A stretch of 64,000 bases of DNA from an uncultured Candidatus Binatia bacterium (lineage in GTDB: Bacteria > Desulfobacterota > Binatia > Bin18 > CBDCRK01): NCBI GenBank assembly GCA_965220955.1, contig CBDCRK010000037.1, positions 58,928-122,927 on the forward strand. The letters are read 5' to 3'. This document shows, one piece after another, positions 5,650 through 55,838 of the stretch (positions are counted from its first letter, which is position 1; each line of letters opens with the position of its first letter). The position numbers and the translations under genes were made by a program. The notes under the pieces are model-generated. The model was not told the DNA's origin and made no database searches. It worked only from the letters and a program-made list of their open reading frames with translations.

Positions 5650-6552
5650 TTATTTGCCTTCAACCACATAATGAATCGGCGGGACACTTTTGAGATAGGC
5701 CGCCACTGCCCTGGCATCTTCACGTGTCATATCCTTGTACCCTACAGGTAACCCATCGACAAGCAGGGCCATTAATCCCTGCACATTGTCCGCATTGGGC
5801 TTAAATCCCGTACGCAAGAGGTCGGCAATATCGCGCTCGCTCCAGTCTCCAATTCCGGTCTTTTCATCAGGAGTAATATTGGGAACAATCTCGCCATCTA
5901 CCCCTTCAGCATTGCCCGCAAGGTAAAGAGAATCTTCCAGAGTGCCTGTGACTTTACGTGGGGTATGACACTCGCCACAGTGAGCCACATGCTCGGCAAT
6001 GTATTTCCCTCGTTCCACTCCGGATTCCGGCGCTTGTCGAGAAGCAGAAGCCGGAGAGAAGAAGAGCCAGCGCCATATCCGCATCAGGGTTCCAGAAAGC
6101 GGGAGTTTCATCTCATGGGGTTTGTTTTCTTGGGCAATTGGGGGAAGACTGAGCATATAGACAACCAGAGCCTTCACATCCTCGTCTGCCATGCCACTAA
6201 AAGCGGGGTATGGCATCACCGGACTGAGACGCTCTCCGTTTGGTCGTACACCCAGGCGAATAGAATCGATAATCTCCTGGTTGGTCCATTGGCCAATACC
6301 GTAGGTTGGATCTGACGTGACATTAGTGCCATAATAGGTACCCAAAGGCGTTTTTGTTGGCCGACCTCCGGCGTTTAGCGGTCCTCCCTCTGCCGTGTGA
6401 CATCCACACCCTCCGGCAAGCGCAAAAACATATTTTCCCTTTTCCACCAAGCTCTGGCTGGCTTCTTGGGCAAGGGTACAAGGAGGGAGAGCCCCCCCCA
6501 GCAACAAGATCAGAATAAGAACCCACTTTTTTTTATGCCTTAGACACCGCAT
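5650..6552 (-). CDS. Diheme c-type cytochrome
   Basis: Signal peptide plus two CxxCH motifs (CGCH, CGECH) in a 300-aa ORF. Confidence 0.7.
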   Translation of the reverse strand: MRCLRHKKKWVLILILLLGGALPPCTLAQEASQSLVEKGKYVFALAGGCGCHTAEGGPLNAGGRPTKTPLGTYYGTNVTSDPTYGIGQWTNQEIIDSIRLGVRPNGERLSPVMPYPAFSGMADEDVKALVVYMLSLPPIAQENKPHEMKLPLSGTLMRIWRWLFFSPASASRQAPESGVERGKYIAEHVAHCGECHTPRKVTGTLEDSLYLAGNAEGVDGEIVPNITPDEKTGIGDWSERDIADLLRTGFKPNADNVQGLMALLVDGLPVGYKDMTREDARAVAAYLKSVPPIHYVVEGK

Positions 6553-6696
6553 TGTGCCGCTCTTTGGTCCCCAGTTGTTTATCTAGTTATTTATGAGGAA
6601 GGTTGAGGTTTTGCAAGCAGGTCTTGAGGGAAGAGAAGTGGCGAATCTAAGCAACACAATCTTTGAGATAACTCGGGCACTTCTGCATAAGAAAAC

Positions 6697-6809
6697 TTTT
6701 CCACTTGTATTACGAGAAGAAAAAAGCCTAGGGGCACTGGCTTGTGGATAAGCCTGTGGAAAAAACAAGAAAACTTCAATTTTTAAGATTGGTTATAAAG
6801 TTATCCACA
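6697..6809. promoter_or_regulatory. Cluster of DnaA-box-like 9-mers in an AT-rich intergenic region
   Basis: Perfect TGTGGATAA at 6743-6751 and perfect TTATCCACA at 6801-6809 in inverted orientation; a 1-mismatch TGTGGAaAA at 6755-6763 and a 2-mismatch box at ~6697. Confidence 0.45.
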
Positions 6810-6825
6810 ACTGTGAATAATCCTT

Positions 6826-7032
6826 ATGGCTATTCTACTAGATTTGGGAGCTGCGCAGAGGGATGAGAAAAAGATGCTGGATCTTTTAGGTGGTAGGATC
6901 ACAGTCGAAAGCGAGGTTGGACGCGGCTCGACGTTTCGCGTGTGGGTCCCCACCAACAGAACCGCCTATGCGTACGGCAGCTCATGTTCAGGATTTGAGC
7001 AACGGAACCGCAAGAAACGACTATATATATGA
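6826..7032 (+). pseudogene. C-terminal remnant of a histidine kinase (HATPase_c G2 box only)
   Basis: 68-aa ORF containing only GGRITVESEVGRGSTFRVWVP, the extreme C-terminal motif of histidine kinases; no HisKA/DHp domain upstream. Confidence 0.55.
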
Positions 7033-14650: not shown

Positions 14651-15679
14651 ATGAGGAAGCGTAGAATTAAGGCTTCTATGCTGGTGCTCAGCCTGATTTC
14701 CTTTCTCGCCAGTGGATGCGCCATCAAAAGGTGGATCCCTTTTGTTTCTAACAATGAGCCCACTGTAAATCAGTCTCTGGCTGAACGGCCAGACGGTTCA
14801 CAGGGTTCGGTGTTATCTTTTGGCAACGGCAACAAGGCAGAGGGGGGGCTAAACCCACAGTATGTAACCGAGGGGGATCTCCTCAAGATTGTTAACGAGT
14901 TTCAGAACAGTGCCCAGAGAGACACCTACCGTTTTCCCCTGCCTAAAGACATCACTGGTGCCAATGTACTCAAAGCTACACTCACACGGCTTAAAGACTA
15001 CGAGGACGAACACCCCGGCGCTTATCCGGAGCTCATCGAGTTTACCCGGGCACGAGCCTACGAAGGGTTGCATGAGTATGACAAGGCGGTCGAGTCCTAC
15101 CAACAGGTAACCCAGACGAATAGCCGTCTCAGAGATGAGGCAACCAAAGGGCTAGCGGCACTCACCCGCTTCCTCCAACTCAAGTCCCAACCTATTACCG
15201 CAACTACTCCGCTTGAGTATTTAAAGGCCCTTGACCACAATATTACCGCCTGGCAGGAGTTGGTACAGGAGTTTGCCGAAACCCCTTATGCGACCCTTGC
15301 TCAAGAGGAGGAGGAACGGCTGGACTGGGCTAAAGTGGCCTTTCTTGAGCTGAACCGTCACCGGCTTGAAGACGGCAACGCGCTTGTAGTGCTGGCCTGT
15401 CAGCAGCTTATTGCCAAGCACCAGGAAAGCAAAAATCTCTATCGCTATTTGGTTGAGCTAGGCGACTTTTACACCGTGCTTGCCCACGAATATGTAGCGC
15501 AAAATGATCCCGAAGGACTGCGCTTTGATACCAATACATTTGAAGAATTGGGGCAGTCGGCGTTGCGCCTGTACGGGCGGGTAGCCCAGGAGGACGGGAT
15601 TATGGAAAAACTCGAAGCTAGGGGCAAGCTGGCAGCGCTTGAGGCATACATGGCCAAAGTGGGGCGCCTGAGCCGATGA
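14651..15679 (+). CDS. Hypothetical lipoprotein (signal peptide + lipobox LASGC), mostly alpha-helical
   Basis: 342-aa ORF with lipoprotein signal; no recognised domain; stop overlaps the start of the next gene (ATGA). Confidence 0.5.
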   Translation: MRKRRIKASMLVLSLISFLASGCAIKRWIPFVSNNEPTVNQSLAERPDGSQGSVLSFGNGNKAEGGLNPQYVTEGDLLKIVNEFQNSAQRDTYRFPLPKDITGANVLKATLTRLKDYEDEHPGAYPELIEFTRARAYEGLHEYDKAVESYQQVTQTNSRLRDEATKGLAALTRFLQLKSQPITATTPLEYLKALDHNITAWQELVQEFAETPYATLAQEEEERLDWAKVAFLELNRHRLEDGNALVVLACQQLIAKHQESKNLYRYLVELGDFYTVLAHEYVAQNDPEGLRFDTNTFEELGQSALRLYGRVAQEDGIMEKLEARGKLAALEAYMAKVGRLSR

Positions 15680-17718
15680 GAAAAGCCTTCATATGGGGGG
15701 GTCTCTTTACCTTTCTCTTCATTGTCCCGCTCAGGGCAGAAGAGCTTTCTGATCCGCTTGCCCGTAGGCTTACTGACTTTTTTCCCACTTATACGCCTTT
15801 TGTTCCCGAGATACCGCCGGACCGCTACTTCCCGGATGAAGTGGGAAAGGGGGTAGCTGAGGCGATTGTTGACACTTACCTACAGGACTCGCAGGCCCTG
15901 GAAAAACATTATCAAGACTTGGTGAATAAAGACGCTGAACTGGCCGCCAAAGGGGAGCTACCAAGCGGGATTGCCCCATATGTTCGTAATCTAAGGGAAG
16001 GACTCATTCCTGAAGCAAAAGACGAGGAAAGGGAAGACTTCTTCCTGGCCTCTGCTTCTCCAGGGGATCTGCGGCAAGAAGCCGATCGTCTACTTGCCGA
16101 GGAGAAACGTAGCCAAGTAGGCCGCAAGTTTAATTGGCTCCTCTCCTCCCTGAATGTTACTGGCCTCTTTTTCGGTGCGCCCGCCCAACCCAATATTTAT
16201 GAGACACAGCGTGCGGTGTCGAGCTTTGGTGAGACTAAAAGCATGTCTTCTCGTGAGCGTAAAGCGCTTGTGCTCTATCGGGAATTTCTTCGTCGAGCCC
16301 CCGAGGAGCCAGGCGTTGAGGAGGTTGAAGAAAAAGTGCGCCAGCTCGAAGAGCAGAAAAAGCAGGCGCTATTGGAGAGAGAGTTGCAACAGGCCGAAGT
16401 CTGGTTCGAGAAGCAGGACTACTGGAGAGCAAACTTCCACTATCAGCTCGCTCTTCTGGTTGACGAAAATGCTCCAGAGGTACACGAAGGACTTGCCAAG
16501 GTTGAAAAGCAGCTGCAGCGCAAGGATGAACCGTGGGCCGATAAACAGCCTGTAGACGCGCTAGCTGGACTGAAACGGGCGCAATGGGAACACGACAAAG
16601 ATACAGTCAAATACCTGTTACCTGGAGGCAGATATATCAAAGACAACGTTGTCATTGCTGGCACACAGATTGCCACCGAAGGGCTGATGGGTGGGGTCAC
16701 GTTTGGCGCCCTTTCCTTAGTCCACATTGGAGCAAAAGTGTTCCAGCTGTTCACTAGCAATCCTGTTTCCCACCAGCCGATCATCACCGAGGGAGAAAAA
16801 TACCTGTATGATACTCCTTCCGAGGAGCGTGATCCTGAGGTGTATGGCATCCTTGCCACTGCGTACGAGAGAGAAGGGAGATATGACAAGGCCATCGAGT
16901 ACTATACCCTCGCTGGACAAGAAGAGAAGGTGCCTGCCCTAAAAGAAAGAGCAGCACAAGCCCTCCTGTACATGGCTAAGGAAAGTGACCAAGAGACACA
17001 AAAGGAGTCCTACCTTCGCCTCTTGCTTGAACATTACCCCAACACTGAGGCAGTCCAGGAAGCCGCACCACAGCTACGTGAGCTGACCCAGCTGGAAAAC
17101 CGGGGTCTCAGAATGAGCAAGGCGTTTCTTAAGGAGCATCCTGAGCTTTTCGGCCGGAGCGGATTGGGGCTTAAAGAAACACTCTTTGACCGAGACAGGG
17201 ACAATGTTGAGCTCGCCGACGAGGGGGTGACACTACTGCCTAATGGAGAGATTGCTATTTACTTCCAAACCAAAGAAGGAAGCAGAGTTAAACGCTATAT
17301 TCCACCGCAGGGGGCATGGGATCGTTTCTGGCGACGTTTCCGTGAAGAGGGCTATACCCAGGCCCTCAAAGGAGATGGCCAAGATATGATAGCCCTGATG
17401 GTAGGAGGTACAGCTCAAGACACCGTGTTGAAAGGGCAGAAGGAAAAACACGAAGAAGGGGGATGGCGTCTTCTCCCCTATATGGCGGGAAGCCTTTCCG
17501 GCAGCTATGTTGATCTTCATGGTACTCTACCACCCGAGATTGCCGGCTCACGCATGGCATTTGGCACCGACCAAAACAGCCCTTATGCTGGTATGGAACT
17601 TCCTATGCCCTTTGTGCCGGTGGATTTTCTCTTTATAGGCCGTACTGGTAGCGTTGCCCTTTTTCCGCAAATTCGCCTGCCAGAGAGTCAGCTGAAGGAC
17701 GAGAAACTGTACCAATAA
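15676..17718 (+). CDS. Hypothetical secreted protein, 680 aa, TPR/alpha-helical-like
   Basis: N-terminal signal peptide; long ORF translationally coupled to the upstream lipoprotein gene; no recognised catalytic motif. Confidence 0.5.
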   Translation: MRKAFIWGGLFTFLFIVPLRAEELSDPLARRLTDFFPTYTPFVPEIPPDRYFPDEVGKGVAEAIVDTYLQDSQALEKHYQDLVNKDAELAAKGELPSGIAPYVRNLREGLIPEAKDEEREDFFLASASPGDLRQEADRLLAEEKRSQVGRKFNWLLSSLNVTGLFFGAPAQPNIYETQRAVSSFGETKSMSSRERKALVLYREFLRRAPEEPGVEEVEEKVRQLEEQKKQALLERELQQAEVWFEKQDYWRANFHYQLALLVDENAPEVHEGLAKVEKQLQRKDEPWADKQPVDALAGLKRAQWEHDKDTVKYLLPGGRYIKDNVVIAGTQIATEGLMGGVTFGALSLVHIGAKVFQLFTSNPVSHQPIITEGEKYLYDTPSEERDPEVYGILATAYEREGRYDKAIEYYTLAGQEEKVPALKERAAQALLYMAKESDQETQKESYLRLLLEHYPNTEAVQEAAPQLRELTQLENRGLRMSKAFLKEHPELFGRSGLGLKETLFDRDRDNVELADEGVTLLPNGEIAIYFQTKEGSRVKRYIPPQGAWDRFWRRFREEGYTQALKGDGQDMIALMVGGTAQDTVLKGQKEKHEEGGWRLLPYMAGSLSGSYVDLHGTLPPEIAGSRMAFGTDQNSPYAGMELPMPFVPVDFLFIGRTGSVALFPQIRLPESQLKDEKLYQ

Positions 17719-29427: not shown

Positions 29428-29775
29428 TTGCACAATGGTCTTCGGGCAATGCTCACAACACAGGCCATTAAAAATTGGCTTGACCGTCTGCCCAAAGTCG
29501 AATTGCACATACACATCGAAGTTGCCATCCCCCTCCCGGCCCTCTGGCAACTTATCGAGAAATACGGGGCTGCACCGAATATTGGAGGCATTGATGCTCT
29601 GCGAGATCGCTTCAGGTACCTCGATTTCCAGCAGTTTAGCGGGAATTCTAGGTCTGCCTGGATTGATAAAGCTGAACGAGAGACGTCTTTAACCGGATTT
29701 ACCGAAAGGCTGGTATCACCTCCTGGGCAAAACACTGGAGACCTTCGAGGTCATAAGGCGAGGAAACGGAGATGA
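29428..29775 (+). pseudogene. N-terminal stub of an adenosine deaminase-like gene
   Basis: LPKVELHIHIEVAIPLPALWQLIEKYG resembles the ADA N-terminus (LPKxELHxHLDG..) but similarity is lost after ~70 aa; the convergent LLM oxidoreductase gene overlaps its 3' part. Confidence 0.4.
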
Positions 29776-30643
29776 TGAGGTGGGTAACCCCAACGGCAAT
29801 GAATTCTTCAACCTGTTTTCGCACCTCTTGGGAACTGCCCACAAGCATCCACTTACGTGCCTCCTCCAAGGTGGTGTTCCAGGTTGCCGCATAGGCTTCT
29901 AGGGCTTTGCGTTCTTTCTCCCGGTCATTGCTGAGGGTCATCTGGATCAGCACCGACTTTTCAATGGCTGCAGGGTCACGGCCGATCTGATAGCAGTGCT
30001 CTGTCAGCACAGCGATTTTATGGCGAAAGACCTCAGGCGAGCCGAAAGTGTTCCACATATTCGCATGGCGGGCAACAATGCCTAAGGCCACCCTCTCGCC
30101 TGCCGCGCCAAGCATAATAGGGGGATGGGGGTTTTGCATCGGCTTGGGCTTAAAGAGGGCATCGTTGAGCTGATAGTATTTACCAGTGAAGTTGGCCTTC
30201 TCTTCTATCCACAATCGCTTGATCACTTCCAGAGCCTCGTCTAGCATTGCTAGCCGATCGCTAATCTTGGGAAAAGGAATATCATACGCCTTATGCTCCA
30301 GCTCAAACCAGCCAGCACCAAGACCCAGAATTAAACGGCCACCGCTGATCACGTCTACTGTAGTTGCCATCTTTGCCAGCACCGCCGGGTGGCGATAGGT
30401 GTTGCCCGTAACCATCACCCCCAGGCGAGCTTTCTTTGTAGCCATGGCTAGGGCAGCCAGAGTTGTCCAGCCTTCCAAGCAAGGTCCGGTGGGATCAGAA
30501 AAGATAGGAATAAAGTGATCAAACACCCAAGCACTGTCAAACCCCAGGGAGTCCACATTTTGCCAGAGTGAGAGCACCTCCTGCCAAGACCCATGCTGCT
30601 GTGGAGTCTGGATGCCAAAGCGGACCGGATGCGCACTCGACAT
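29699..30643 (-). CDS. LLM-class flavin (F420/FMN)-dependent oxidoreductase (luciferase-like monooxygenase family)
   Basis: Luciferase-like TIM barrel motifs; RBS AAGGAGG before the internal ATG (MSSAHPV), so the start is set at 30643. Confidence 0.75.
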   Translation of the reverse strand: MSSAHPVRFGIQTPQQHGSWQEVLSLWQNVDSLGFDSAWVFDHFIPIFSDPTGPCLEGWTTLAALAMATKKARLGVMVTGNTYRHPAVLAKMATTVDVISGGRLILGLGAGWFELEHKAYDIPFPKISDRLAMLDEALEVIKRLWIEEKANFTGKYYQLNDALFKPKPMQNPHPPIMLGAAGERVALGIVARHANMWNTFGSPEVFRHKIAVLTEHCYQIGRDPAAIEKSVLIQMTLSNDREKERKALEAYAATWNTTLEEARKWMLVGSSQEVRKQVEEFIAVGVTHLIISVSSPYDLEGLQCFAQEVIPAFR

Positions 30644-30729: not shown

Positions 30730-31626
30730 TCAAAGCCGATAGGGAGGAATCGCCTGCTCGTTACCCAGCCGGTCGACCCTTACCGAACCAAAGCGCAGGC
30801 ATCTCACTTCGGCAAGAGACAACAACGGCGAAAGAAATTCAATGGCTCCCTTGCCCATATTGAGATCGGTGAGAAGGCCTAACCCCAGGCAAAAATTCTC
30901 TCCGTCATTAAGCCCAAGGAGGAGTCCTGCTAAGGCCTCAGCCTTAGTCTGAGGAACTCTGCCCCACACAGCAACATCCTTCAGCAAAAGACGGCAGGGC
31001 TTAAGGTTGTTAAAATACGCGGTATATTTTTTGCGCCGGTTATGCCGCCGTTCCTCTGACGAGCGCAGGCGCGTTTGACTAGAAACGGGTAAGCGGTGGA
31101 TCTTCATACCACTGTGGGTCCGGCAGGGACCAAGGATGGGCTCAAGTTCTTGATCATGGGCTAGGGCTAGGATGTGCGTGGGAGAGAGAAGGTCGATCTT
31201 TTGCAGTTTGAACTCCACAGCTAGAGGGCCTTCTACCAAACCCGTGGTGTCAATCAGAATAGCCTTGACCCCTAAGCCAAGGGCTCGTTGCAAGAGTCGT
31301 TTACAACCCACCACCGTCTGCAGCAAGTGCCCCACTGGCGAAGTAGAACCAACAAAGCAACTGGCAACTTTCTCTGGCACAACTTTCTCAGCATTGGCGC
31401 CGGGCTGAAGAAGTACCAGGTTAAGCGTAGTGGGCAGGCCGTAGGTAGATTGACCCATGTCCCCGTCGAGAACGGCTACCGGATTGCTCGCAGCAAGAAA
31501 AAGTTTGGTCAGCCCCTGAAGGAGCATGGTCTTACCCACGTCAGTCTTTCCCAAAACGAAGAAGGTTCCCCCCTCATGGATGATCTCTGGCAAAAGCGAA
31601 CGAAAGGCTTCTTCCTGCTGACCCAT
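30730..31626 (-). CDS. Clp1/Grc3-like P-loop polynucleotide kinase family protein
   Basis: GGTFFVLGKTDVGKTMLLQGL...VAVLDGDMGQS matches the Clp1 P-loop domain (GPxDSGKST...DLDVGQ). Confidence 0.5.
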   Translation of the reverse strand: MGQQEEAFRSLLPEIIHEGGTFFVLGKTDVGKTMLLQGLTKLFLAASNPVAVLDGDMGQSTYGLPTTLNLVLLQPGANAEKVVPEKVASCFVGSTSPVGHLLQTVVGCKRLLQRALGLGVKAILIDTTGLVEGPLAVEFKLQKIDLLSPTHILALAHDQELEPILGPCRTHSGMKIHRLPVSSQTRLRSSEERRHNRRKKYTAYFNNLKPCRLLLKDVAVWGRVPQTKAEALAGLLLGLNDGENFCLGLGLLTDLNMGKGAIEFLSPLLSLAEVRCLRFGSVRVDRLGNEQAIPPYRL

Positions 31627-31663
31627 ATCGGAGTGAGTAACTGAACTAAAGCGCCTCCTCGCT

Positions 31664-32140
31664 CTATGTCACGTCCTCTTCCTTAAGGGACCGACGGCGA
31701 GCTGATAACAAAGAGGAGAACGCCTCCTTGAGCTTGTCATTGTCCAGCGGAGGAAGGGTTAATTCTACAAAGGGTTCTTGGCGGCGAACCAGACGAACTT
31801 CCCGTTCCTCCCCACGTTCGCGCCGGCTCCTCCCCAGGACAAAGAAAATATCCTTGATCACAGGCTCACCCACGCGCCTGTTAATCTTTTCTTTCACCAT
31901 CTCTTTGAGAAATTGTAGCTCCTGCATCCACATGGAGTCCGACACATGGACAAAAAGAAGCCCTTTCTGAATTTTGCTTGGCCACGCATGACGAGCAACC
32001 GTTTCCCCCACTGCCTCTCTCCACACTCCCCACACCTGATACTGCTGCAACTGCCTGCCCATCGGCAGCCGCTGCAGCAGTGTTGTAATCACCTCACCTG
32101 TTAGCGACCATGTTGGCCGTTGGTGTCTTTCTTTTGTCAT
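31664..32140 (-). CDS. DUF721 / DciA-like protein
   Basis: 158-aa ORF with the DUF721 pattern (LQQYQVWGVWREAVGETVARHAWPSKIQKGLLFVHVSDSMWMQELQFLKEMVKEKIN). Confidence 0.6.
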   Translation of the reverse strand: MTKERHQRPTWSLTGEVITTLLQRLPMGRQLQQYQVWGVWREAVGETVARHAWPSKIQKGLLFVHVSDSMWMQELQFLKEMVKEKINRRVGEPVIKDIFFVLGRSRRERGEEREVRLVRRQEPFVELTLPPLDNDKLKEAFSSLLSARRRSLKEEDVT

Positions 32141-32337
32141 TATCAGGCATCATAGAGAAAGTCCCATAAAAAAAGAAGAGCCACCTTTTTCTGAAGAGCC
32201 CTCTCTTTTCTCTGCACCACCGTCAACTAAACGCAGGGTACTAGTGAGGGGGTCTAGTCACAAACCGAAACTATGCAGAATAACTGAAGCTTTCTTTCTT
32301 CTTTATTTTCTCCTTTTTTTCGCTTAAAGCGAAGGTC

Positions 32338-32400
32338 TTGACAAATGAATAAAACACAACATATAGTGCTCCGTCATTTTGTCCACTACAAGATCATGTA
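32338..32400 (+). promoter_or_regulatory. nrdJ promoter with two NrdR-box-like palindromes
   Basis: -35 TTGACA (32338-43), -10 TATAGT (32362-67). Box 1 ACACAACATATAGTGC (32354-69) matches 14/16 of the NrdR consensus acaCwAtATaTwGtgt and overlaps the -10. A second imperfect palindrome TACAAGATCATGTA (32387-32400) is centred 32 bp downstream. Confidence 0.55.
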
Positions 32401-32500
32401 TCATTTAAGAGTCGAAGGAGGGGCCCTTAACTCGAATCTGCCAGCTTTTTCAGCTGGCCCCGCCAGATATTAGACCAGATATTAGAGAGGAGGGGAGAGT

Positions 32501-35464
32501 ATGGCTGAGAGGGTGAGGAAGCGGAATGGCGTGGTCAACAGTCATCGGGTGGAGAAGGAACTAAGCAAAGCCTTAGTCAGCGAATCTAGTGAACGGAGTG
32601 CCCAAAGCACGCAACTAAGCACAGCGTCCATGAGCGAGGCGGAGTCCAACGGATCCGGTCGAGGGCAGGGAAACCTCTTAGAGGTAGAAGGCCAAGGTGT
32701 GGCCATTCAACGCTACTTTACTCGCCCGGGAGAGCCTCCCTTTGACCTTGTCGAGTGGGAGAAGCGCAACGCCATTATTTCCGGAGAACACGGAGAGACC
32801 GTTTTTGAACAGCGCGAGGTTGAGATTCCCAGGCCGTGGTCCCAGCTTGCTACCAACGTTGTGGTATCCAAATACTTTCGCGGGCCGCTCGGTACTCCCC
32901 AGGGGGCAGACCCCCGCCGAGAGCACAGTGTCCGTCAGCTAATTGGCCGAGTGGTGAAGACCATTACTGCCTGGGGTCGGAAGGATAAGTATTTCACAAC
33001 AGAAGAGCAAGCCTCTACCTTTGCTGATGAACTCACCCATCTCCTACTCCAGCAAAAAGCCTCGTTTAACAGCCCGGTGTGGTTCAACGTTGGGGTCGAA
33101 CCTGAGGGAAAAGCCCAGTGTAGTGCATGCTTCATCCTCTCTGTTGAGGACACCATGGAATCGATCCTCGACTGGTATAAGAAAGAGGGCACTATCTTTA
33201 AGGGCGGCTCAGGCTCCGGCATTAATCTTTCCAAAATTCGCTCCTCAAAGGAGAGGCTCTCAGGTGGGGGCCTAGCCTCAGGACCTGTCTCTTTCATGCG
33301 TGCGGCTGATGCCTCAGCTGGGGTAATAAAGTCAGGCGGAAAAACCCGCAGGGCAGCTAAGATGGTTGTCCTTGACGCTGATCACCCTGACATTGTCGAA
33401 TTTATCCACTGCAAGTCCGAAGAAGAGAAAAAGGCCTGGGCCTTGATTGACGCAGGTTATGACGGTTCTCTCGATGGCCCGGCCTACAGCTCTATCTTTT
33501 TCCAGAATGCCAACAACTCGGTGCGGGTAACCGACGATTTCATGAAGGCAGTGATAGAGGATGAAGAGTGGCAGACCCGGTTGGTTATGACCGGAGAGGT
33601 CTGTGAGACCTATAAGGCCCGTGACCTCCTGCGCATGATTGCTGACGCTACCTGGCAGTGTGGGGATCCGGGGATGCAGTTTGACACCACAATGAACAAT
33701 TGGCACACCCGTCCAAACAGTGGACGGATAAACGCAACCAATCCTTGCGGAGAATTTAACTCGCTCGATAACACCGCCTGCAACTTGTCCTCCTTAAATC
33801 TCATGAAATTCCTCAAAGATGACAGCACTTTTGACATTGCCGCGTTTCGCCACGCGGCGGACGTGATGATTACCGCCCAGGACATTCTTGTTGACAACTC
33901 CAGCTATCCTACCCCGGAGATTACAACCAACGCCAAAGGGTTCCGCGAGCTGGGACTGGGGTATGCTAACCTTGGAGCGCTGCTTATGTACCTGGGACTA
34001 CCCTACGACTCTGAGGCTGGACGGCAGCATGCCGCAGCCATCACTGCATTAATGACCGGTGAGGCTTACCTACAATCCGCTCGCTTGGCTGAGCAGTTGG
34101 GACCTTTTTCCGGCTATGCAGTCAACCGCAAGCCCATGCTTAAAGTGATCGAAAAGCACCGCAGTCACGCTCATAAGCTAGACCCCGCCCTAGTGCCTTT
34201 GGATCTCCTTTCCGAGGCCAGAAAAGTCTGGGACGAGGCCCTGAACTTGGGAAAAGAAGTGGGGTTTCGTAATTCGCAGGTCACGGTTTTGGCTCCTACC
34301 GGCACTATTGCCTTTATGATGGATTGTGACACCACCGGTGTAGAACCAGATATTGCCCTGGTCAAATATAAACGCCTTGTTGGCGGTGGACTTCTAAAGA
34401 TAGTCAACAACACGGTTACCCCTGCCCTTAAGCGTTTGGGCTATGACAGTAAAGAAGTCCAGGAGATCGTTGAATACATCGACGAACACGAAACCATTGA
34501 AGGCGCGCCTGAGCTAAGAGATCAACACCTTCCAGTGTTTGATTGTGCGTTTAAGCCGACCAAGGGAGCCCGCTCTATCCACTATTTGGGCCATCTCAAG
34601 ATGGTAGCGGCGGTGCAGCCTTTCCTTAGCGGCGCGGTATCAAAGACAATTAATGTTCCCTCCCAAGTAACTGTCGAGGAAATTGCTGACGCTTATATCC
34701 AGGCTTGGAAGCTGGGGATTAAAGCAGTAGCCATCTACCGCGATGGGTGTAAACGGATACAACCGCTTAGCACCGGGGTAAAGAAGAGCCCGGAGGTGGG
34801 AGACCGCCCCCGAGAAGCTGTGGCAGTAGAAGCTCATCCAGTGCGCCGTCGTCTGCCTACTGACAGGCAGGCGCTCTGTCATAAGTTTGAGATCGCTGGG
34901 CACGAGGGTTATATCCATGTGGGTTTCTATGAGGATAGCGCGCCCGGTGAGATCTTCATCAAGATGGCCAAAGAAGGAAGCACTATTTCTGGCCTTATGG
35001 ATGCTGTCGGGCTTCTCACCTCAATGGCACTGCAGTATGGTGTGCCACTTGAGGTGCTGGTGGACAAGTTTAGCCATGTCCGTTTCGAGCCTTCGGGCTT
35101 TACTAAGAACCCGGATGTTCCCTATGCGAAATCGCTCATTGACTACCTTTTCCGTTTTCTAGGCACTCGTTTCCTATCGGCCGAGCAGAAGCAGCAGGTT
35201 GGTTTGATGGAAAGTGGCAACTGGCAAGAGGCCCCACAGAACGAAAATGACCAGCCTCATGGCCAAGCGACTATGACCATAGCTGAGCCTGGTTATACCT
35301 CGGCAGCTGCTACTGGTTTTAACCCTAAGCCAGCCCTTGTTAGCAGAACTCCTTGGCAGTCGCAGGCCGACGCGCCGAGCTGTCCTGACTGTGGCGCTAT
35401 TATGATCCGCAACGGCTCCTGTTATAGGTGCCTAAACTGTGGAGCCACCAGCGGGTGCTCATAA
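32501..35464 (+). CDS. nrdJ: Class II (adenosylcobalamin-dependent) ribonucleotide reductase
   Basis: 987-aa ORF with RNR active-site motifs (NPCGEF, SSLNL) and a C-terminal Cys-rich zinc ribbon tail; strong RBS AGAGGAGGGGAG. Confidence 0.9.
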   Translation: MAERVRKRNGVVNSHRVEKELSKALVSESSERSAQSTQLSTASMSEAESNGSGRGQGNLLEVEGQGVAIQRYFTRPGEPPFDLVEWEKRNAIISGEHGETVFEQREVEIPRPWSQLATNVVVSKYFRGPLGTPQGADPRREHSVRQLIGRVVKTITAWGRKDKYFTTEEQASTFADELTHLLLQQKASFNSPVWFNVGVEPEGKAQCSACFILSVEDTMESILDWYKKEGTIFKGGSGSGINLSKIRSSKERLSGGGLASGPVSFMRAADASAGVIKSGGKTRRAAKMVVLDADHPDIVEFIHCKSEEEKKAWALIDAGYDGSLDGPAYSSIFFQNANNSVRVTDDFMKAVIEDEEWQTRLVMTGEVCETYKARDLLRMIADATWQCGDPGMQFDTTMNNWHTRPNSGRINATNPCGEFNSLDNTACNLSSLNLMKFLKDDSTFDIAAFRHAADVMITAQDILVDNSSYPTPEITTNAKGFRELGLGYANLGALLMYLGLPYDSEAGRQHAAAITALMTGEAYLQSARLAEQLGPFSGYAVNRKPMLKVIEKHRSHAHKLDPALVPLDLLSEARKVWDEALNLGKEVGFRNSQVTVLAPTGTIAFMMDCDTTGVEPDIALVKYKRLVGGGLLKIVNNTVTPALKRLGYDSKEVQEIVEYIDEHETIEGAPELRDQHLPVFDCAFKPTKGARSIHYLGHLKMVAAVQPFLSGAVSKTINVPSQVTVEEIADAYIQAWKLGIKAVAIYRDGCKRIQPLSTGVKKSPEVGDRPREAVAVEAHPVRRRLPTDRQALCHKFEIAGHEGYIHVGFYEDSAPGEIFIKMAKEGSTISGLMDAVGLLTSMALQYGVPLEVLVDKFSHVRFEPSGFTKNPDVPYAKSLIDYLFRFLGTRFLSAEQKQQVGLMESGNWQEAPQNENDQPHGQATMTIAEPGYTSAAATGFNPKPALVSRTPWQSQADAPSCPDCGAIMIRNGSCYRCLNCGATSGCS

Positions 35465-37292: not shown

Positions 37293-38030
37293 TGACCGCA
37301 GTCGATACCTACTTAGCCGTACGGCGGGCGGCAGGCTTTCAACTCAACCATCTTGAGGCCTATTTGCGCAGCTTCGCCCGCTTTATGCACGCGGAGAACC
37401 CGCGGCATGAGATCCCCCCCGCAAACCCTCTTCTGTGGGCGGCGCCAGCAACCGACCCCCTATATCTTTAGCGAGGCGGAAATCCAGCGCATTGTGGCTC
37501 ACGCGCGGCAACTCAGTCCCTTGGATTCGCTGCGGCCCTCTACCTACAGCACCCTGTTTGGTCTGCTCGCTGCCACGGGGATGAGTTGCGCGGAAGCTCG
37601 GGCGCTCCAGCTCAGCAATATCACTCCGGCTAGAATCCTCATCCGGGAAAGCAAGTTCAAGAAAAGCCGACTGCTCCCGCTGCACGACACAACCTGGGTG
37701 GCCCTGGAGGGCTACCTCGACCGGCGGCGGCGAGTCGCCGGCCACGATCCGCACCTGTTTGTCTCCCGCCGCGGCGGCAAGCTCTCTCACACCATCGTGG
37801 CCGAAACCTTCCATGCGGTAGTGCAAGCAGCTGGCGTTCCGAGTGAGCCAGGCAAACCCTGCCCCCGGCTCATGGACCTCCGGCATATCCTCGCCGTCCG
37901 CGGGCTCGAGACGTGTCTCGATGGCCGCGATCAAGTCCTTCATGCACTTTCCGGAGTACCGCGTCCCGGCCCACCTGGAGCAGATTCGCTAGGCCCTGGC
38001 CATCCCCGCAAAAAAACCAGCAGCCCCTGA
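37286..38030 (+). pseudogene. Tyrosine recombinase / phage-integrase family gene disrupted by at least two frameshifts
   Basis: N-terminal SAM-like domain (MLMTAVDTYLAVRRAAGF..LEAYLRSFARF) in one frame and the catalytic domain (IRESKFKKSRLLPLHD..HLFVSRRGGKL..LRHILAV) in another; the C-terminal HxxR..Y region shifts again. Confidence 0.6.
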
Positions 38031-38090
38031 TCCCGCATCTCTCCCTCACAGAATGTTAAGCTTGGCATCAACGAGGAGGAATTTTATCGC

Positions 38091-38633
38091 TTGGCGGATG
38101 AAAACAGCGATGGAGAGTACCTTGACGGAAGGATTGTCATGCATTCGCCTGCCTCAAATCGGCACGAGGATACTTCCCGTTTTCTCCTCACCCTCCTGAG
38201 CGCCTACCTGGATGAAAAAAGAGCAGCGGTGGGGCGCGGCTCCCGTTATCCGAGGCGTCTCGATGCCAGCTGGTCCCCGGAGCCTGATATCCTGGTAGTC
38301 CGCAAGAGTCGCCGGCAGCTTATGACGTCCCGCCGTTTGGAAGGGCCCGCCGATATGGTCATCGAGATCGCTTTGGAGAGCGACCCCAGGCTGGACTACC
38401 GTGAAAAGCTCCCACGCTATCGCCAGGCAGAGATCGAGGAGATCTGGATCATCAATCCCTTCGAGAACGATATCCTGGCGGAGGTAAAAACAACGGCCGG
38501 CTACACCACGCAGGTCCTGTCCTCGGGACAGCTAAGGTCCAAGGTACTGCCCGGTTTCTGGATCGAGGTCTCCTGGTTCTGGCAGGAGGAGTTGCCGCCA
38601 ACGCTCAGGTGCCTACGAGAAATCATGCAATAA
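38091..38633 (+). CDS. Uma2 family (DUF820) putative endonuclease
   Basis: EYLDGRIVMHSPA...PDILVV...EIALESD...Y..A.IEEIWIINP pattern of Uma2/PD-(D/E)xK; the frame stays open ~20 codons upstream without an ATG, so the start is uncertain (TTG at 38091). Confidence 0.6.
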   Translation: MADENSDGEYLDGRIVMHSPASNRHEDTSRFLLTLLSAYLDEKRAAVGRGSRYPRRLDASWSPEPDILVVRKSRRQLMTSRRLEGPADMVIEIALESDPRLDYREKLPRYRQAEIEEIWIINPFENDILAEVKTTAGYTTQVLSSGQLRSKVLPGFWIEVSWFWQEELPPTLRCLREIMQ

Positions 38634-39514
38634 TTCCTTAGTAGAGAGGAATAATCCCTTTTGCCCATTCTCATCCCTGTCCATCTCTTTCTTATAGGGG
38701 TGCCTATAGTCTCGGAAAGATAGCAATTCGCTAAGCGCCTGGTGGCTGTATTCGGACTCTGAAATCACCAGCCCGGCCAGAAACGCACCCAAGGCCAAAG
38801 AGAGTCCAGCTTGCGCTGTTACCCAGGCAGTACCCAACCCCAGAAGCAAGATACTAACTAAGAAGAGCTCACGGCTGCGCGTACGTACGACCTGATACAA
38901 TACCGTGGGGACAAGGTAACGGGTGGCAACAAGCACCAGAACCAGGACCCCCCCGCTTTCCCTACGACTACAAGCACAGGTTCTGATCCTTGAGCTCCAG
39001 CACCGGCTAAAAACGGAACCAGCAACATCATCAGCACAACGCTAAGATCCTGAAGAATTAGGATGCCTAGTGCAGTACGCCCCTGGGGACTATCGAGAGT
39101 AGCTTGCGCTGCCAGGAGCCTTACCACAATGGCAGTGCTGCTCAGAGAGATAAGGAAACCAAGGAACACAGAGGGGCCCATCGGCTGGCCCAACACTTGG
39201 GCGAGCACAAATACCACTCCTACCGTACCCAACACCTGCAGCGTCCCGCCCAGAAGCACAGCTCGCCGGATGAGCATAAGCTCCCGGAGGGAGAATTCGA
39301 TGCCAATGGTAAACAGCAGCATAACAACGCCAATTTCGGCCAGGACTTCAACTTCCTGCACCGCGGCGATCAGCTGCAACCCATGCGGACCAACTAGAAC
39401 TCCGATAAAGAGAAACCCCACAATGGTCGGTAACCGCAGGTAATGGAAAACAAAGAGGACCCCTAGGGACAAGCCAAAGATAATAATCAAGTCTGTTAGA
39501 ATATGCACTTCCAC
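38613..39514 (-). pseudogene. CPA2 (KefB/KefC-type) cation:proton antiporter membrane domain, frameshifted and truncated
   Basis: ORFs 38858..39514 and 38613..38936 together cover the Na_H_Exchanger TM domain with a frame change near 38900-38940; no C-terminal KTN/RCK domain. Confidence 0.55.
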
Positions 39515-50458: not shown

Positions 50459-50493
50459 GAGAAACGGTGGTCAAGAAGGGAAGGGAAGAGAAT

Positions 50494-50925
50494 ATGCCAG
50501 AAGATTCAGGACAAAATTGGGTAGTGAGACGTTATGAATGTAGGGTCGAGAAGCAGTTAGAGAAGCTTAGAAATGTTCTTGAACAGGATGTTAATCAAAT
50601 GAACATCCTGCTTGGCGAGAAAAGTGAGTGGTGGTTCGATGTTTCTGATCCAGGTTTGCTTGAATCTGAATCTGGATGTGAGGTCAGAAAAGTTGATAAG
50701 TATACTCGATCTCTCGTTTCCGTTGGGTCAGAGAACACAGTTTCCTTTATCTTGGAAAAGCAAGCAATTCATGTAAAGCACGATGGTAAAGAACTATTCA
50801 AGGTTCAGCTTGAGTGGAATGGGCGGCAGAGCCATTGTGACCTCAAGATTGATGGGGAGACCTATGAACTTTGGGAAATATCCCATATAGCCCTGGGTCC
50901 TTTCTTCTTTGAGGGCAAGTTTTAG
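50494..50925 (+). CDS. Hypothetical protein (paralog A of a duplicated gene)
   Basis: ORF 50467..50925; start set at MPEDSGQNWVV by analogy with paralog B (MPEEDLGPDWVV) and the GGGAAGGGAAG RBS. Confidence 0.5.
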   Translation: MPEDSGQNWVVRRYECRVEKQLEKLRNVLEQDVNQMNILLGEKSEWWFDVSDPGLLESESGCEVRKVDKYTRSLVSVGSENTVSFILEKQAIHVKHDGKELFKVQLEWNGRQSHCDLKIDGETYELWEISHIALGPFFFEGKF

Positions 50926-51870
50926 AAAGTCAGGAGGTCAGGCAGGAGTAGCTGAGCTGTTTTCCATCCATAAGTCTGACCATTGCGGTCATGCGATCCA
51001 AGATAGAGAGTGGCCGCAGGTTATGGCGGCCCACAAACTCGTTCACGTACCTGCCCAAGTGCTTCACGCTCATTTTATGGTAGACGCCATAGTGCCCACG
51101 TTTAAGGAGTGCCCAGAAGCTTTCTATGCCGTTAGTGTGAACCATGCCCGAAACGTACTGGCCGGCACTATGTCTGACAGAGTGGTGGTTTTTCAGGTCA
51201 ATATAGCCGCCATGGTCGTCCGTAAAGACAAGGGCGTCCTCTGGCTATTCGTTCTTCAACAAACTTCTGTAGAGTGGCTTTATCGGTGCCGAGAGACACC
51301 ATGGCTTTTAGCTGGTTAGTCCCACGGTCCAAGATCCCTAACACGGGAGTCTTACCGGCTGTCCCTCTACCCGAGCGTAGTTTCTTGTCTCCGTGCTTAT
51401 TCTTCTCTCTTCCGCCCACATAGGTTTCATCTACTTCTACCGGGCCCACACAAACCGAGAGTCATTATCATTCCATATTTCCCTTATGCGGTGCGCCAGA
51501 TGCCAGGCTGTTTTCTGGGTAATACCAAGGTCACGGGCAAGCCGAACGCTCGACACACCTTAACACTGGTGCTTATCATGTAGAACGCCAGAGCCCAGCC
51601 CTGAAATCCAAGCTTGGAGCTCTGCATTGGGGTTCCCGTCTTTACTGAGAAGTCTCTCCTGCAATGCCGGCAATGGTAAGGCTGGGGCTTGCGGTGGGGC
51701 GAAGGTATAGGTCTCGTGATTCACACTTCGGACACCGTATACCGCCCGGCCAGCGAGCCTCTATAAACCATTTCTCAGCCGTAGCATCGTCAGGGAATTT
51801 ATGAAGTAACTGGGCCAGCGAGAGTTGTTTCTCCATACACCCTAATGATAGCAAAGGCGTATAACATCTT
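50926..51870 (-). mobile_element. IS1595-family insertion sequence remnant; transposase split into three frames
   Basis: Minus-strand pieces: N-terminal zinc-ribbon (51642..51854, ...RWPGGIRCPKCES...), central DDE region (51198..51449, ...DETYVGG...) and C-terminus (50930..51145, ...NGIESFWALLKRGHYGVYHKMSVKHLGRYVNEF...). Confidence 0.7.
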
Positions 51871-53868: not shown

Positions 53869-54570
53869 TTAGGAAGCAGCTATAGCCCGCTCGATGCCAT
53901 CAAAGAACTGCCACCACATATCAAGCGAGCAGTTGAGGGCCAAACGCACTCTTTCTTGCCACTCCTCCGTAGTGGCGTGACGCACAACAATGTGATCACC
54001 TACATCGCTGTGATCCTTATCTGCCTCTTCGTGTATATCCCAAAAAGCAACCTGAGCGCTGGTAAGTCCGTAGTGCTTTTCCAGGGAACGGGCAAAGGGA
54101 CTAAAGCTGCCTGGCACCTGTCCCTCAGCCGCAAGGTTGATGGCTGCTGCTCCTTCAATAAAAGAGCGCTGCTTGGTAGACAGCTCAAACCAATTGATGA
54201 GCGTAGCAGTAGCTGGTAAGGGCTCGCCATAGACTATCTGCTCACGGGACAGCCCCAGCCCCTGGCCAAAACGGACGAATAGCTCAGGGTGAGGGAGGTT
54301 GCAACCCGAGATCTTACCTGTCTCTTCTTCGAAGAGGCTCTCGGCCAGCTTGATCCGCTCTTCAGCAAACGGACAATTGGCATGCATAGCGCTCACTGCC
54401 CGAGGAAACTCACGCACCTGCAGGAAAAATTGTACGGCCCAGGTCTGCATCTGCAGGAGCGTAAGTTCTCCCTCCATAATCTTGAGCCAGAGCGGGTGGC
54501 GACCAAACGTTCGCTTGGCCTGGATTGTCTCCATCAAATCTTGCACAAATTCTCGGTTTGACACGGTCAT
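53869..54570 (-). CDS. PqqC-like / heme-oxygenase-like (TenA_C/CADD-like) family protein
   Basis: Strong similarity to the PqqC pattern (RHPLWLKIMEGELTLLQMQTWAVQFFLQVREFPRAVSAMHANCP...LFVRFGQGLGLSREQI); start at the internal ATG (54570), whose ATGA overlaps the ribBA stop. Confidence 0.6.
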   Translation of the reverse strand: MTVSNREFVQDLMETIQAKRTFGRHPLWLKIMEGELTLLQMQTWAVQFFLQVREFPRAVSAMHANCPFAEERIKLAESLFEEETGKISGCNLPHPELFVRFGQGLGLSREQIVYGEPLPATATLINWFELSTKQRSFIEGAAAINLAAEGQVPGSFSPFARSLEKHYGLTSAQVAFWDIHEEADKDHSDVGDHIVVRHATTEEWQERVRLALNCSLDMWWQFFDGIERAIAAS

Positions 54571-55838
54571 AGAGTTGCCCTCTTTAAAGATTCCTTCCCT
54601 CCTCGATTGTAAGCTGCAGGTTGTGGGTTTCGTTTTCTCGACGCAGAAGGAGTACGCCGCTGAGAGGGAACGCTCAACGGCACACACTCAACAATCTCCA
54701 AACCATATCCAGGTAAACTCACCAAACGGGGCGGATTATTAGTGAGGAGCCGCATTTTTCTCACCCCCATATCTCGTAGGATCTGGGCGCCAATGCCATA
54801 GTCACGAAAGTCGCGTAACCGGGAGGTTAGGCTTGTGCTTAGCTGGCGTGATTTCTTACTGCGACCTTTTCCATCCAAGCCATGGTCGCGAAAGAGGTCT
54901 GTTCCTCGTCCCTCCTGCCGCAGGTAGAGGATCACCCCTTTCCCCTCAGCAGCAATGATCTCCATTGCCTGGTGAAGAAGGGCTCCCGTATTGCGGCGGG
55001 CGTAACCAAACACATCCCCTGGCAGATACTCGGTATGGGCCCGCACCAGCACTGGCTCCTTGGGGTTAATCTTTCCCTTGACTAGGACTAGATGCTCCTC
55101 TTCATCCACGTCACTGATATAAACGCAGGCAGTAAAGTCGCCGCCATAGCGGCTTGGCACCTTTGCTTCCGCCACCCGGTGAACTAGGGAATCATGCCGC
55201 AGACGGTATTGGACAAGGTCAGTAATGGTAGCGATCTTAATCCCATGCCGGGCGGAGAACTTCTCGAGGTCTGGCAACCGCGCCATGGTACCATCATCCT
55301 TCATAATCTCGCAGATCACTCCAGCGGGTTTAAGCCCAGCGAGGCGTGCAAGATCCACGGATCCTTCGGTTTGCCCAGTACGCACAAGCACCCCGCCTCT
55401 GCGGGCACACAGGGGAAACATATGTCCCGGAGTCACTAGGTCCTCGGACCGTGTGTTGTCACGGATGGCAGTAAGAATGGTGGTGGCCCGGTCCTCCGCC
55501 GAAACTCCCTTACCTACTCCATAGCGGGCATCAATAGAGACGGTAAATGCAGTGCCTAAGGGCGCAGTGTTTTTGCTCACCATCATGGATAGGCCGAGCG
55601 CATCAACCTGCCCCGCAGTCAGGGGTAGACAGATGAGCCCTCTACCGTACTTAGCCATGAAATTGATCGCCGCCGGCGTTACTTTCTCCGCTGCTAGGCA
55701 AAGGTCTCCCTCATTCTCTCGATCTTCATCGTCCATAAGGATGATCATCTGGCCAGCACGGGTTTCCTCGATTGCCTCTTCAATCGAGACCACATAGGAA
55801 CTCTTGTACACTGGAGTAGGTAGTGGTGTCGAAAACAT
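54567..55838 (-). CDS. ribBA: RibBA-like: 3,4-dihydroxy-2-butanone-4-phosphate synthase fused to a degenerate GTP cyclohydrolase II-like domain
   Basis: N-terminal RibB motifs intact (DDEDRENEGDL...); in the RibA-like domain the zinc-ligand region reads HTEYLPGDVFGYARRNTG instead of HSECLTGDxFGSxRCDCG, so all three Cys are absent, and the following catalytic stretch is also divergent. Confidence 0.7.
   Translation of the reverse strand: MFSTPLPTPVYKSSYVVSIEEAIEETRAGQMIILMDDEDRENEGDLCLAAEKVTPAAINFMAKYGRGLICLPLTAGQVDALGLSMMVSKNTAPLGTAFTVSIDARYGVGKGVSAEDRATTILTAIRDNTRSEDLVTPGHMFPLCARRGGVLVRTGQTEGSVDLARLAGLKPAGVICEIMKDDGTMARLPDLEKFSARHGIKIATITDLVQYRLRHDSLVHRVAEAKVPSRYGGDFTACVYISDVDEEEHLVLVKGKINPKEPVLVRAHTEYLPGDVFGYARRNTGALLHQAMEIIAAEGKGVILYLRQEGRGTDLFRDHGLDGKGRSKKSRQLSTSLTSRLRDFRDYGIGAQILRDMGVRKMRLLTNNPPRLVSLPGYGLEIVECVPLSVPSQRRTPSASRKRNPQPAAYNRGGKESLKRATL

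Follow-up and report, generated by a model that had tools for sequence, protein, structure and literature searches.

In a 64,000-nucleotide stretch of contig CBDCRK010000037.1 from an uncultured Candidatus Binatia bacterium (the window), a gene for the helicase-loading protein DciA is followed on the same strand by a gene for a polynucleotide 5'-OH kinase homologue of the Clp1 family (clp1). Both lie beside nrdJ, which encodes a class II ribonucleotide reductase (Table 1). The pairing of dciA and clp1 is real but modest: two known genes in a lineage-specific operon. The two gene products probably act independently of each other or are loosely related through co-expression. The analysis gave no evidence that DciA and the kinase are obligate functional partners, and physical coupling of the two proteins would not be expected.

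Table 1. Positions of the features discussed in the text (window numbering unless a locus of a relative is named)
Feature	Position	Strand	Basis
F420-dependent LLM-class oxidoreductase gene	29699-30643	-	TIGR03560, 280 bits (cut-off 231)
clp1, Clp1-family polynucleotide 5'-OH kinase homologue, 298 aa	30730-31626	-	Pfam and predicted structure
Spacer between dciA and clp1, 37 nt	31627-31663	-	no convincing terminator
dciA, DUF721 helicase-loader homologue, 158 aa	31664-32140	-	Pfam and predicted structure
Putative dciA promoter: T-rich element 32164-32182, -10-like TATGAT 32149-32154	32149-32182	-	conserved pattern
Predicted nrdJ promoter, TTGACA (32338)-18 nt-TATAGT (ends 32367), with two NrdR-like boxes	32338-32401	+	promoter and motif scan
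nrdJ, class II (B12-dependent) ribonucleotide reductase	32501-35464	+	NCBIfam NF005122, 1421 bits; Pfam Ribonuc_red_lgC, 8.8e-141
Small helical gene of relatives	L003 5773-5991; L009 3481-3690; L091 1150-1347; L093 4753-4959; L097 4978-5184		
Two co-oriented open reading frames (342 and 680 aa)	14651-17718		
Phage-integrase-family, Uma2-family and Na+/H+ exchanger fragment region	37353-39514		
Two co-oriented open reading frames (152 and 136 aa)	50467-51319		
ribBA	54567-55838		

The block of divergent nrdJ and dciA-clp1 recurs in about ten distinct relatives, with identities to the window proteins of 49-79% for Clp1, 38-71% for DciA and 63-76% for NrdJ. Adjacency of dciA and clp1 is found in locus L094, where Clp1 is 79% identical to the window protein. 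Divergence of nrdJ from dciA is found in L003, L009, L011, L012, L013, L091, L093, L096 and L097. A small additional gene lies between dciA and clp1 in L003/4/5, L009/10, L011, L012, L013, L091, L093 and L096; in the relatives bearing it, identities to the window are 49-65% for Clp1, 38-52% for DciA and 63-76% for NrdJ. The downstream flanks of the block vary and carry genes for an LLM-class oxidoreductase, DAHP synthase, CoxMSL or hydantoinase.

The distribution of the pairing was analysed from both sides. At least 375 species-representative genomes encode a Clp1 relative, and 80 GTDB species-representative loci drawn from these were examined in a Clp1-centred scan. A DciA neighbour was present in three of them (L011, L012 and L013 only). 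An iterated hidden Markov model search of the same 80 loci revealed no further DciA neighbours, leaving 77 without one, and Clp1 relatives of 43% identity or less were located in unrelated gene contexts. In a DciA-centred scan covering 80 metagenomic DciA loci, nrdJ and the small gene accompanied dciA at two, which belong to the same lineage; clp1 was present in one of the 80, and 78 were without the block. Nine other loci of this set had a gyrB/recF/dnaN context. The pairing is confined to one Binatia-like lineage and has been lost in some of its members. Conservation of the gene pair, a point raised in an original prediction made from the window sequence, thus held among about ten relatives and did not extend outside the lineage. 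The functional link to replication initiation implied in that prediction was not supported by a pairing of such narrow distribution.

Two loci document the loss of linkage. In L097, nrdJ, dciA and the small gene are kept, and the approximately 980 nt holding clp1 are exactly absent in comparison with L093. With flanks of 74-87% DNA identity, this is a clean presence/absence of clp1 (L097 5190-5218 versus L093 4966-5946). L097 also has shorter hydantoinase genes, with further deletions. In L024, from a Binatia metagenome-assembled genome (MAG), a clp1 homologue of 58% identity (5944-6869) is frameshifted into open reading frames (ORFs) of 177 and 132 aa, and no dciA or nrdJ was found within 6 kb; the split may mark a pseudogene or stem from faulty assembly. 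Because L097 is without clp1, clp1 of L024 is unlinked, and the window and L094 are without the small gene, the three genes are separable.

The clp1 product was assigned by profile and structure comparison. It matches Pfam CLP1_P (PF16575) with an E-value of 1.2e-31 and 110.4 bits (cut-off 26.6) over profile positions 1-187 of 188; no NCBIfam model specific to the protein was found. A P-loop polynucleotide kinase domain (residues ~20-206) is followed by a beta-rich C-terminal domain (~207-298). The AlphaFold2 model, built on 18 homologues, reached a predicted local distance difference test score (pLDDT) of 89.9 and a predicted template modelling score (pTM) of 0.89. The 23 best Foldseek matches of this model in the PDB were all Clp1, Grc3 or Nol9, the top 21 of them with TMq 0.67-0.74 over approximately 300-380 aligned columns, and the same three proteins accounted for all significant structural matches (E 4e-18 to 1e-10). 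SRP-type GTPases and other P-loop proteins ranked after them, with TM values of approximately 0.25-0.4. The C-terminal beta domain falls inside the structural alignment to Clp1/Grc3. The N-terminal domain of Clp1 is missing and the P-loop domain begins at about residue 20, so that the three-domain architecture of the eukaryotic proteins is not present. Since most bacterial Clp1 proteins are short at the N-terminus (PMC6777427), this counts against membership in the eukaryotic subfamily only, not in the family.

Four motifs define the Clp1/Grc3 family: the P-loop GxxxxGK[T/S], Walker B [D/E]hhQ, the clasp [T/S/L]xGW, and the lid (PMC5900568). Motif conservation was scored over 113 homologues of the window kinase, in which G26, G31, K32, D56, G58, Q59, D126, G129, R193 and R197 are invariant. 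The P-loop reads G26-KTDV-G31-K32-T33, position 33 being S or T among the homologues. Walker B reads D56-M-G-Q59, in a region that aligns to the stretch ELDVGQ of C. elegans Clp1, and both lid arginines, R193 and R197, are among the invariant residues. The strings GKTDVGKT (residues 26-33) and VLDGDMGQ (52-59), by which the 298-aa protein had originally been recognised as a Clp1/Grc3-type kinase homologue, are present, and the assignment itself was borne out by the CLP1_P match and the structure. In the clasp, T127-T128-G129-L130, the T-x-G is kept; position 130 is L in 91 homologues, F in 13, Y in 8 and M in 1, and never W. The clasp has been called well conserved in bacterial Clp1 (PMC6777427). 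Judged by these residues, the protein has the appearance of a working polynucleotide kinase in which the substrate clasp is altered.

Assignment to other P-loop families was rejected. An identity as a MobB/MinD/CbiA-type NTPase, of which MobB/MinD had been given as an example in the original prediction, was rejected: the CbiA match (E 0.02) is below the cut-off, and structural support is lacking, with TM values of 0.3 or lower for matches to SRP/FtsY-type GTPases. The next-best families (CbiA, AAA_25, PIF1) were all sub-threshold. A PADLOC scan for anti-phage defence gave no match for DciA and only a weak mad8 match for the kinase (E 0.0026, residues 16-101, the P-loop region). It is considered extremely improbable that the P-loop protein is an NTPase, and not a kinase, that gives DciA the ATP-dependent step supplied elsewhere by DnaC or DnaI. 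Such a role would suit a DciA that has no ATPase of its own, the adjacency and common orientation of dciA and clp1, and weak sub-threshold matches of the protein to AAA-type families and Hda. These matches, however, have E-values above 0.08 and lie far below the cut-offs; the residues of polynucleotide phosphotransfer (the Gln of Walker B D-x-x-Q, the clasp T-x-G and the lid arginines) are invariant, the strong structural matches belong without exception to Clp1, Grc3 or Nol9, and clp1 is dispensable in L097.

The rarity of bacterial Clp1 stated in the original prediction was confirmed. Bacterial Clp1 is rare and scattered, with 14 of 1,543 complete genomes (0.9%) encoding it (Saito et al. 2019, PMC6777427). 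An exhaustive search of 1.84 billion clusters returned 1,827 clusters (50% identity) at E<=1e-3 and 1,336 at E<=1e-10. As a by-product of this search, the family is seen to be small, yet in uncultured bacteria it exceeds the size indicated by the survey of 2019. The description of these kinases as poorly characterised is true in part: no physiological role is known for them, but one of them has already been assayed. Ts-Clp1 of Thermus scotoductus phosphorylates single-stranded RNA with a Km for ATP of 2.5 uM, and single-stranded DNA only at high enzyme concentration (PMC6777427). Archaeal Clp1 has been assayed too, and RNA was preferred. Neither a gene-neighbourhood analysis nor a proposed physiological role is contained in PMC6777427.

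Ts-Clp1 and the window kinase have in common the bacterial CLP1_P domain, a short N-terminus, conserved Walker A and B motifs, part of the clasp (T-x-G), a rare and scattered distribution, and an earlier annotation as GTPase or hypothetical protein. ATP-dependent 5'-OH phosphorylation with a preference for single-stranded RNA over single-stranded DNA would be expected for the window kinase by analogy. The His-tagged Ts-Clp1 has approximately 27 kDa, in contrast to the 298 aa of the window kinase with its beta-rich C-terminal domain. Bacterial Clp1 was described as being without the archaeal C-terminal domain by sequence (PMC6777427), whereas the domain in the window protein aligns structurally with Clp1/Grc3. 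Ts-Clp1, compared here by its published description, also has a Lys substitution in the lid, at which both arginines are invariant in the window kinase.

The kinase and C-terminal folds are shared with Clp1, Grc3 and Nol9 (PDB 4ohv-4oi1, 8hmy, 2npi, 6of2, 7y18) at TMq of approximately 0.7, as are the P-loop GxxxxGK[T/S], the Walker B D-x-x-Q and the lid arginines. The window protein differs from them in the missing N-terminal domain, in the clasp (T-T-G-L, not [T/S/L]-x-G-W) and in its low identity of 14-19%. The eukaryotic partners Pcf11, TSEN and Las1 are not encoded near the window kinase, and tRNA-splicing or ITS2-processing pathways are not known from the bacterial setting. Bacterial Pnkp-Hen1 and T4 Pnkp are likewise P-loop 5'-OH polynucleotide kinases acting in end healing, the role that is proposed for the window kinase; they belong to another kinase clade, and no fused or adjacent phosphatase, ligase or Hen1 methyltransferase was found here. 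Searches with Clp1 do not recover T4-type polynucleotide kinase (PMC6777427).

By analogy with Ts-Clp1 and archaeal Clp1, the window kinase most likely moves the gamma-phosphate of ATP to the 5'-OH end of single-stranded nucleic acids, RNA being a better substrate than DNA. Lys32 and Thr33 of the P-loop would bind the nucleotide, Asp56 would serve as the Walker B catalytic base, Gln59 would contact the first phosphodiester of the substrate, and Arg193 and Arg197 of the lid would stabilise the transition state. The enzyme would thereby act in 5'-end healing, making ends ligatable or degradable.

Gene contexts of Clp1-like genes in other phyla (L016-L090) were compared. Recurrent operon-like neighbours are His_Phos_1 (7), DUF72 (6), THEP1-type NTPase_1 (5), Memo (4), Drg/TGS GTPases (4) and RtcA RNA cyclase (3), as well as DUF763/DUF488. 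Many of these neighbours are 'archaeal-flavoured' genes. In one locus only (L092 5001-7732), a Clp1-like gene of 43% identity is followed after 71 nt by a gene for a PolX-family polymerase with a PHP domain, a kinase-plus-repair-polymerase layout reminiscent of eukaryotic PNKP and Pol beta. As a further by-product, these neighbours (histidine phosphatases, RtcA, one PolX) hint at nucleic-acid end metabolism and healing, not at replication initiation. For bacterial Clp1-type kinases, with proven activity and no assigned function in the cell, any conserved gene context is a lead. The context of probable co-transcription with dciA beside nrdJ is a weak lead, because it is lineage-restricted and its genes are separable.

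DciA is a non-ATPase loader or operator of the replicative helicase DnaB, and its gene is customarily located in a dnaA-dnaN-recF-dciA-gyrB cluster. The 158-aa minus-strand ORF of the window, originally read as DUF721/DciA, matches Pfam DciA (PF05258) with an E-value of 1.5e-21 and 76.9 bits (cut-off 24) over residues 15-100, which together with the structure upholds this reading; the Pfam profile searches thus confirmed both members of the pair. Among PDB sequences the protein matches 7ykm (E 2.4e-5). In the AlphaFold2 model, the core (residues ~30-100, pLDDT ~88-92) is followed by a low-confidence linker (103-134) and a C-terminal helix (135-154) predicted at a pLDDT of approximately 55-69; the C-terminal sequence is kept among close relatives. 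The top Foldseek match was again 7ykm, the DUF721 domain of D. radiodurans DciA (TMt 0.84, root-mean-square deviation 1.6 A), followed by 8a3v (V. cholerae DciA in complex with DnaB) and 4tps (DnaA domain I). The model has the KH-like fold resembling DnaA domain I. The dciA product would be an ordinary DciA loader or operator of DnaB, composed of KH-like domain, linker and C-terminal helix.

A word-indexed DciA homologue search returned 11 proteins. The closest homologue found outside the lineage (P0131, locus L095) is 48% identical and is encoded in a dnaA-dnaN-recF-dciA-gyrB cluster. Because the nearest outgroup homologue is an origin-cluster DciA, the window DciA is regarded as an ordinary replication protein with a relocated gene. 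The best-supported reading is that dciA of this lineage has left the origin cluster and moved beside nrdJ; this is another by-product of the analysis, together with the conserved small helical partner gene. No nrdR, dnaA or dnaN gene is present in the 64-kb window. DciA of V. cholerae, D. radiodurans, M. tuberculosis and C. crescentus shares with the window protein the PF05258 domain, the KH-like, DnaA-domain-I-like fold and a flexible C-terminal extension with a helix, the latter as predicted in the model. The window gene differs from those in being divergent from nrdJ, 5' of a kinase gene and outside the dnaA-dnaN-recF-gyrB cluster; binding of its product to DnaB would be expected by analogy.

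The DUF721 protein might alternatively be a paralogue that is not a loader and serves as a nucleic-acid-binding (KH-like) subunit of the kinase, replacing the Clp1 N-terminal domain. This is regarded as very improbable. The kinase does lack that domain, dciA is outside the origin cluster as far as the 64-kb window, out of a genome of roughly 5.5 Mb, extends, and DUF721 domains bind single-stranded DNA according to PMC12547741. However, the predicted linker and the conserved C-terminal helix are typical of DnaB-binding DciA, the nearest outgroup homologue is encoded in an origin cluster, dciA persists without clp1 in L097, and Clp1-like genes without a DUF721 neighbour number in the hundreds.

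Transcription signals were analysed across the locus. A terminator scan gave two weak sites versus 3.2 expected by chance, neither of them in the spacer between dciA and clp1, which had been given as 38 nt and measures 37 nt. Terminator-like hairpins inside dciA and clp1 were disregarded, as they were fewer than in shuffled sequence. Since no convincing terminator is present in this spacer, dciA and clp1 are probably co-transcribed. At the operon junctions of relatives, genes overlap or are separated by 9-42 nt. Upstream of dciA, the pattern CTCTTCTTTTTTT-N14-16-TAtGAT-8-9 nt-ATG is conserved in the window, L003, L011, L093, L012 and L009. In the window, TATGAT ends 8 nt ahead of the ATG. This layout suggests, from sequence, that the dciA mRNA is leaderless or near-leaderless. 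The N-terminal MTK is common to the window protein and the L003 relative, for which reason the ATG at 32140 (158 aa) is favoured over the 142-aa start of the gene caller; the position of the promoter element also supports the longer form.

The genes nrdJ and dciA are transcribed divergently across a spacer of 360 nt. The pair is indeed located beside nrdJ, as had been predicted, whereas 'upstream' does not apply in the sense of an operon. The predicted nrdJ promoter is a near-consensus sigma-70 promoter (11 of 12 positions matched) and is overlapped by a strong NrdR-like box at 32354-32369 (14/16) and a weak one at 32386-32401 (10/16), 32 nt apart. Paired boxes at this spacing were found in six of the seven relatives with long enough upstream sequence; in L013 the extracted upstream stretch stops inside the second box. 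Control of nrdJ by NrdR, taken for granted in the original prediction, is plausible by these motifs. In those relatives whose spacer is compact, the distal NrdR-like box precedes the dciA promoter element by approximately 10 nt. Between the boxes and this element, the window has approximately 170 nt of additional sequence, and direct control of dciA by the boxes was judged unlikely here in view of that distance, though they are adjacent in relatives.

The small gene encodes 65-72 aa, is all-helical, and is conserved between dciA and clp1 in most relatives. Its copies are 66-92% identical to each other and more conserved than DciA. In seven relatives it overlaps with the stop codon of dciA, and in L096 and L097 it begins 5 nt past that codon. 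The gene is absent from the window, where it would fall in the dciA-clp1 spacer, and from L094, and present in L097 despite the missing clp1; the window and L094 have lost it while keeping clp1. Similarity to TPR proteins was sub-threshold (E 0.06-0.17). A catalogue of DciA architectures, with TPR fusions from Nitrospinae and Rokubacteria among them (Blaine et al. 2022, preprint), does not mention a Clp1 or kinase neighbour of DciA. The small gene resembles these fusions in its weak TPR similarity and its overlap with the 3' end of dciA in most relatives, and differs from them in being a separate gene, in a TPR similarity below threshold and in its absence from the window. Together with dciA, it may represent these DciA-TPR fusions in split form.

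Cooperation of DciA, the small helical protein of most relatives and the Clp1-like kinase in a replication-linked module is considered unlikely. Such a module could, for example, phosphorylate 5'-OH ends of DNA or RNA at stalled or restarted forks, with nicks being ligated while DnaB is reloaded and with expression tied to nrdJ and the supply of deoxynucleoside triphosphates. The conserved order of divergent nrdJ, dciA, small gene and clp1, with overlapping junctions and differing flanks, would agree with it, as would the closeness of the second NrdR-like box to the dciA promoter element in relatives, the PolX/PHP neighbour of the distant Clp1 relative in L092, and the phosphorylation of single-stranded DNA by Ts-Clp1 at high enzyme concentration. 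However, the pairing did not recur outside the lineage in either the Clp1- or the DciA-centred scan, clp1 is cleanly absent from L097 and unlinked in L024, and the small gene is missing from the window and L094. The NrdR-like boxes and the dciA promoter element are approximately 170 nt apart in the window, and RNA is the preferred substrate of those bacterial and archaeal Clp1 enzymes that have been assayed. A more specific proposal is that Binatia-like DciA, the TPR-like small protein and the Clp1-type 5'-kinase form a replication-associated end-processing module, transcribed from a leaderless promoter beside an NrdR-controlled nrdJ and coupling DnaB loading or reloading to 5'-OH phosphorylation at forks. 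This is quite unlikely; if true, the module would be a bacterial counterpart of the eukaryotic Clp1/Grc3 kinase-plus-partner complexes.

Several observations weigh against a lineage-specific operon of independently acting products. Two sub-lineages with different flanks on either side have both retained the block, and gene junctions are tight and overlapping in most of its members. Such an arrangement is more than genes adjoining purely by chance; selection, be it for co-expression or for a complex, could lie behind it. Both dciA and nrdJ are replication-linked, which makes a DNA-directed role of the kinase conceivable, and one distant Clp1 relative (L092) is located beside a PolX/PHP repair polymerase. 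The activity and substrate of the window protein are assigned by analogy, and the clasp Trp, which confers RNA specificity in eukaryotic Clp1, is Leu in the window kinase. A looser replication-linked role of the kinase is accordingly conceivable beside the lineage-specific operon, which is retained as the best explanation.

Downstream of clp1, at a distance of 86 nt and on the same strand, the gene for the LLM-class oxidoreductase is located. It also follows clp1 in L094 (the 79%-identical relative) and not in more distant relatives; in this sub-lineage alone, the transcript may extend to it as its final gene. Among MreB sequences, the closest named relatives come from Candidatus Binatia MAGs, so the organism is probably an uncultured bacterium of Binatia-like affinity. 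Recent horizontal transfer of dciA and clp1 was rejected, since GC content and GC content at third codon positions match those of neighbouring housekeeping genes. Scanned over its full length for tRNAs and, at gathering thresholds, against Rfam, the window gave no match, and no riboswitch or RNA element was found at the locus.

Further genes were noted in the surroundings. The co-oriented ORFs of 342 and 680 aa and those of 152 and 136 aa (Table 1) have no Pfam match at E<=1e-4. A ribBA gene occurs in the window and also in L006 (3996-5216) of a Nitrospinota MAG, where it is located approximately 0.8 kb upstream of a Clp1-like gene, on the opposite strand and beyond an LpdD-like gene. The occurrence of ribBA near Clp1-like genes is probably coincidental. 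A few kb beyond nrdJ, a short phage-integrase-family ORF (225 aa), a Uma2-family putative endonuclease gene and a truncated fragment of a Na+/H+ exchanger, whose 218 aa match no more than the first half of the profile, are found, and this region may be the scar of a mobile-element insertion.

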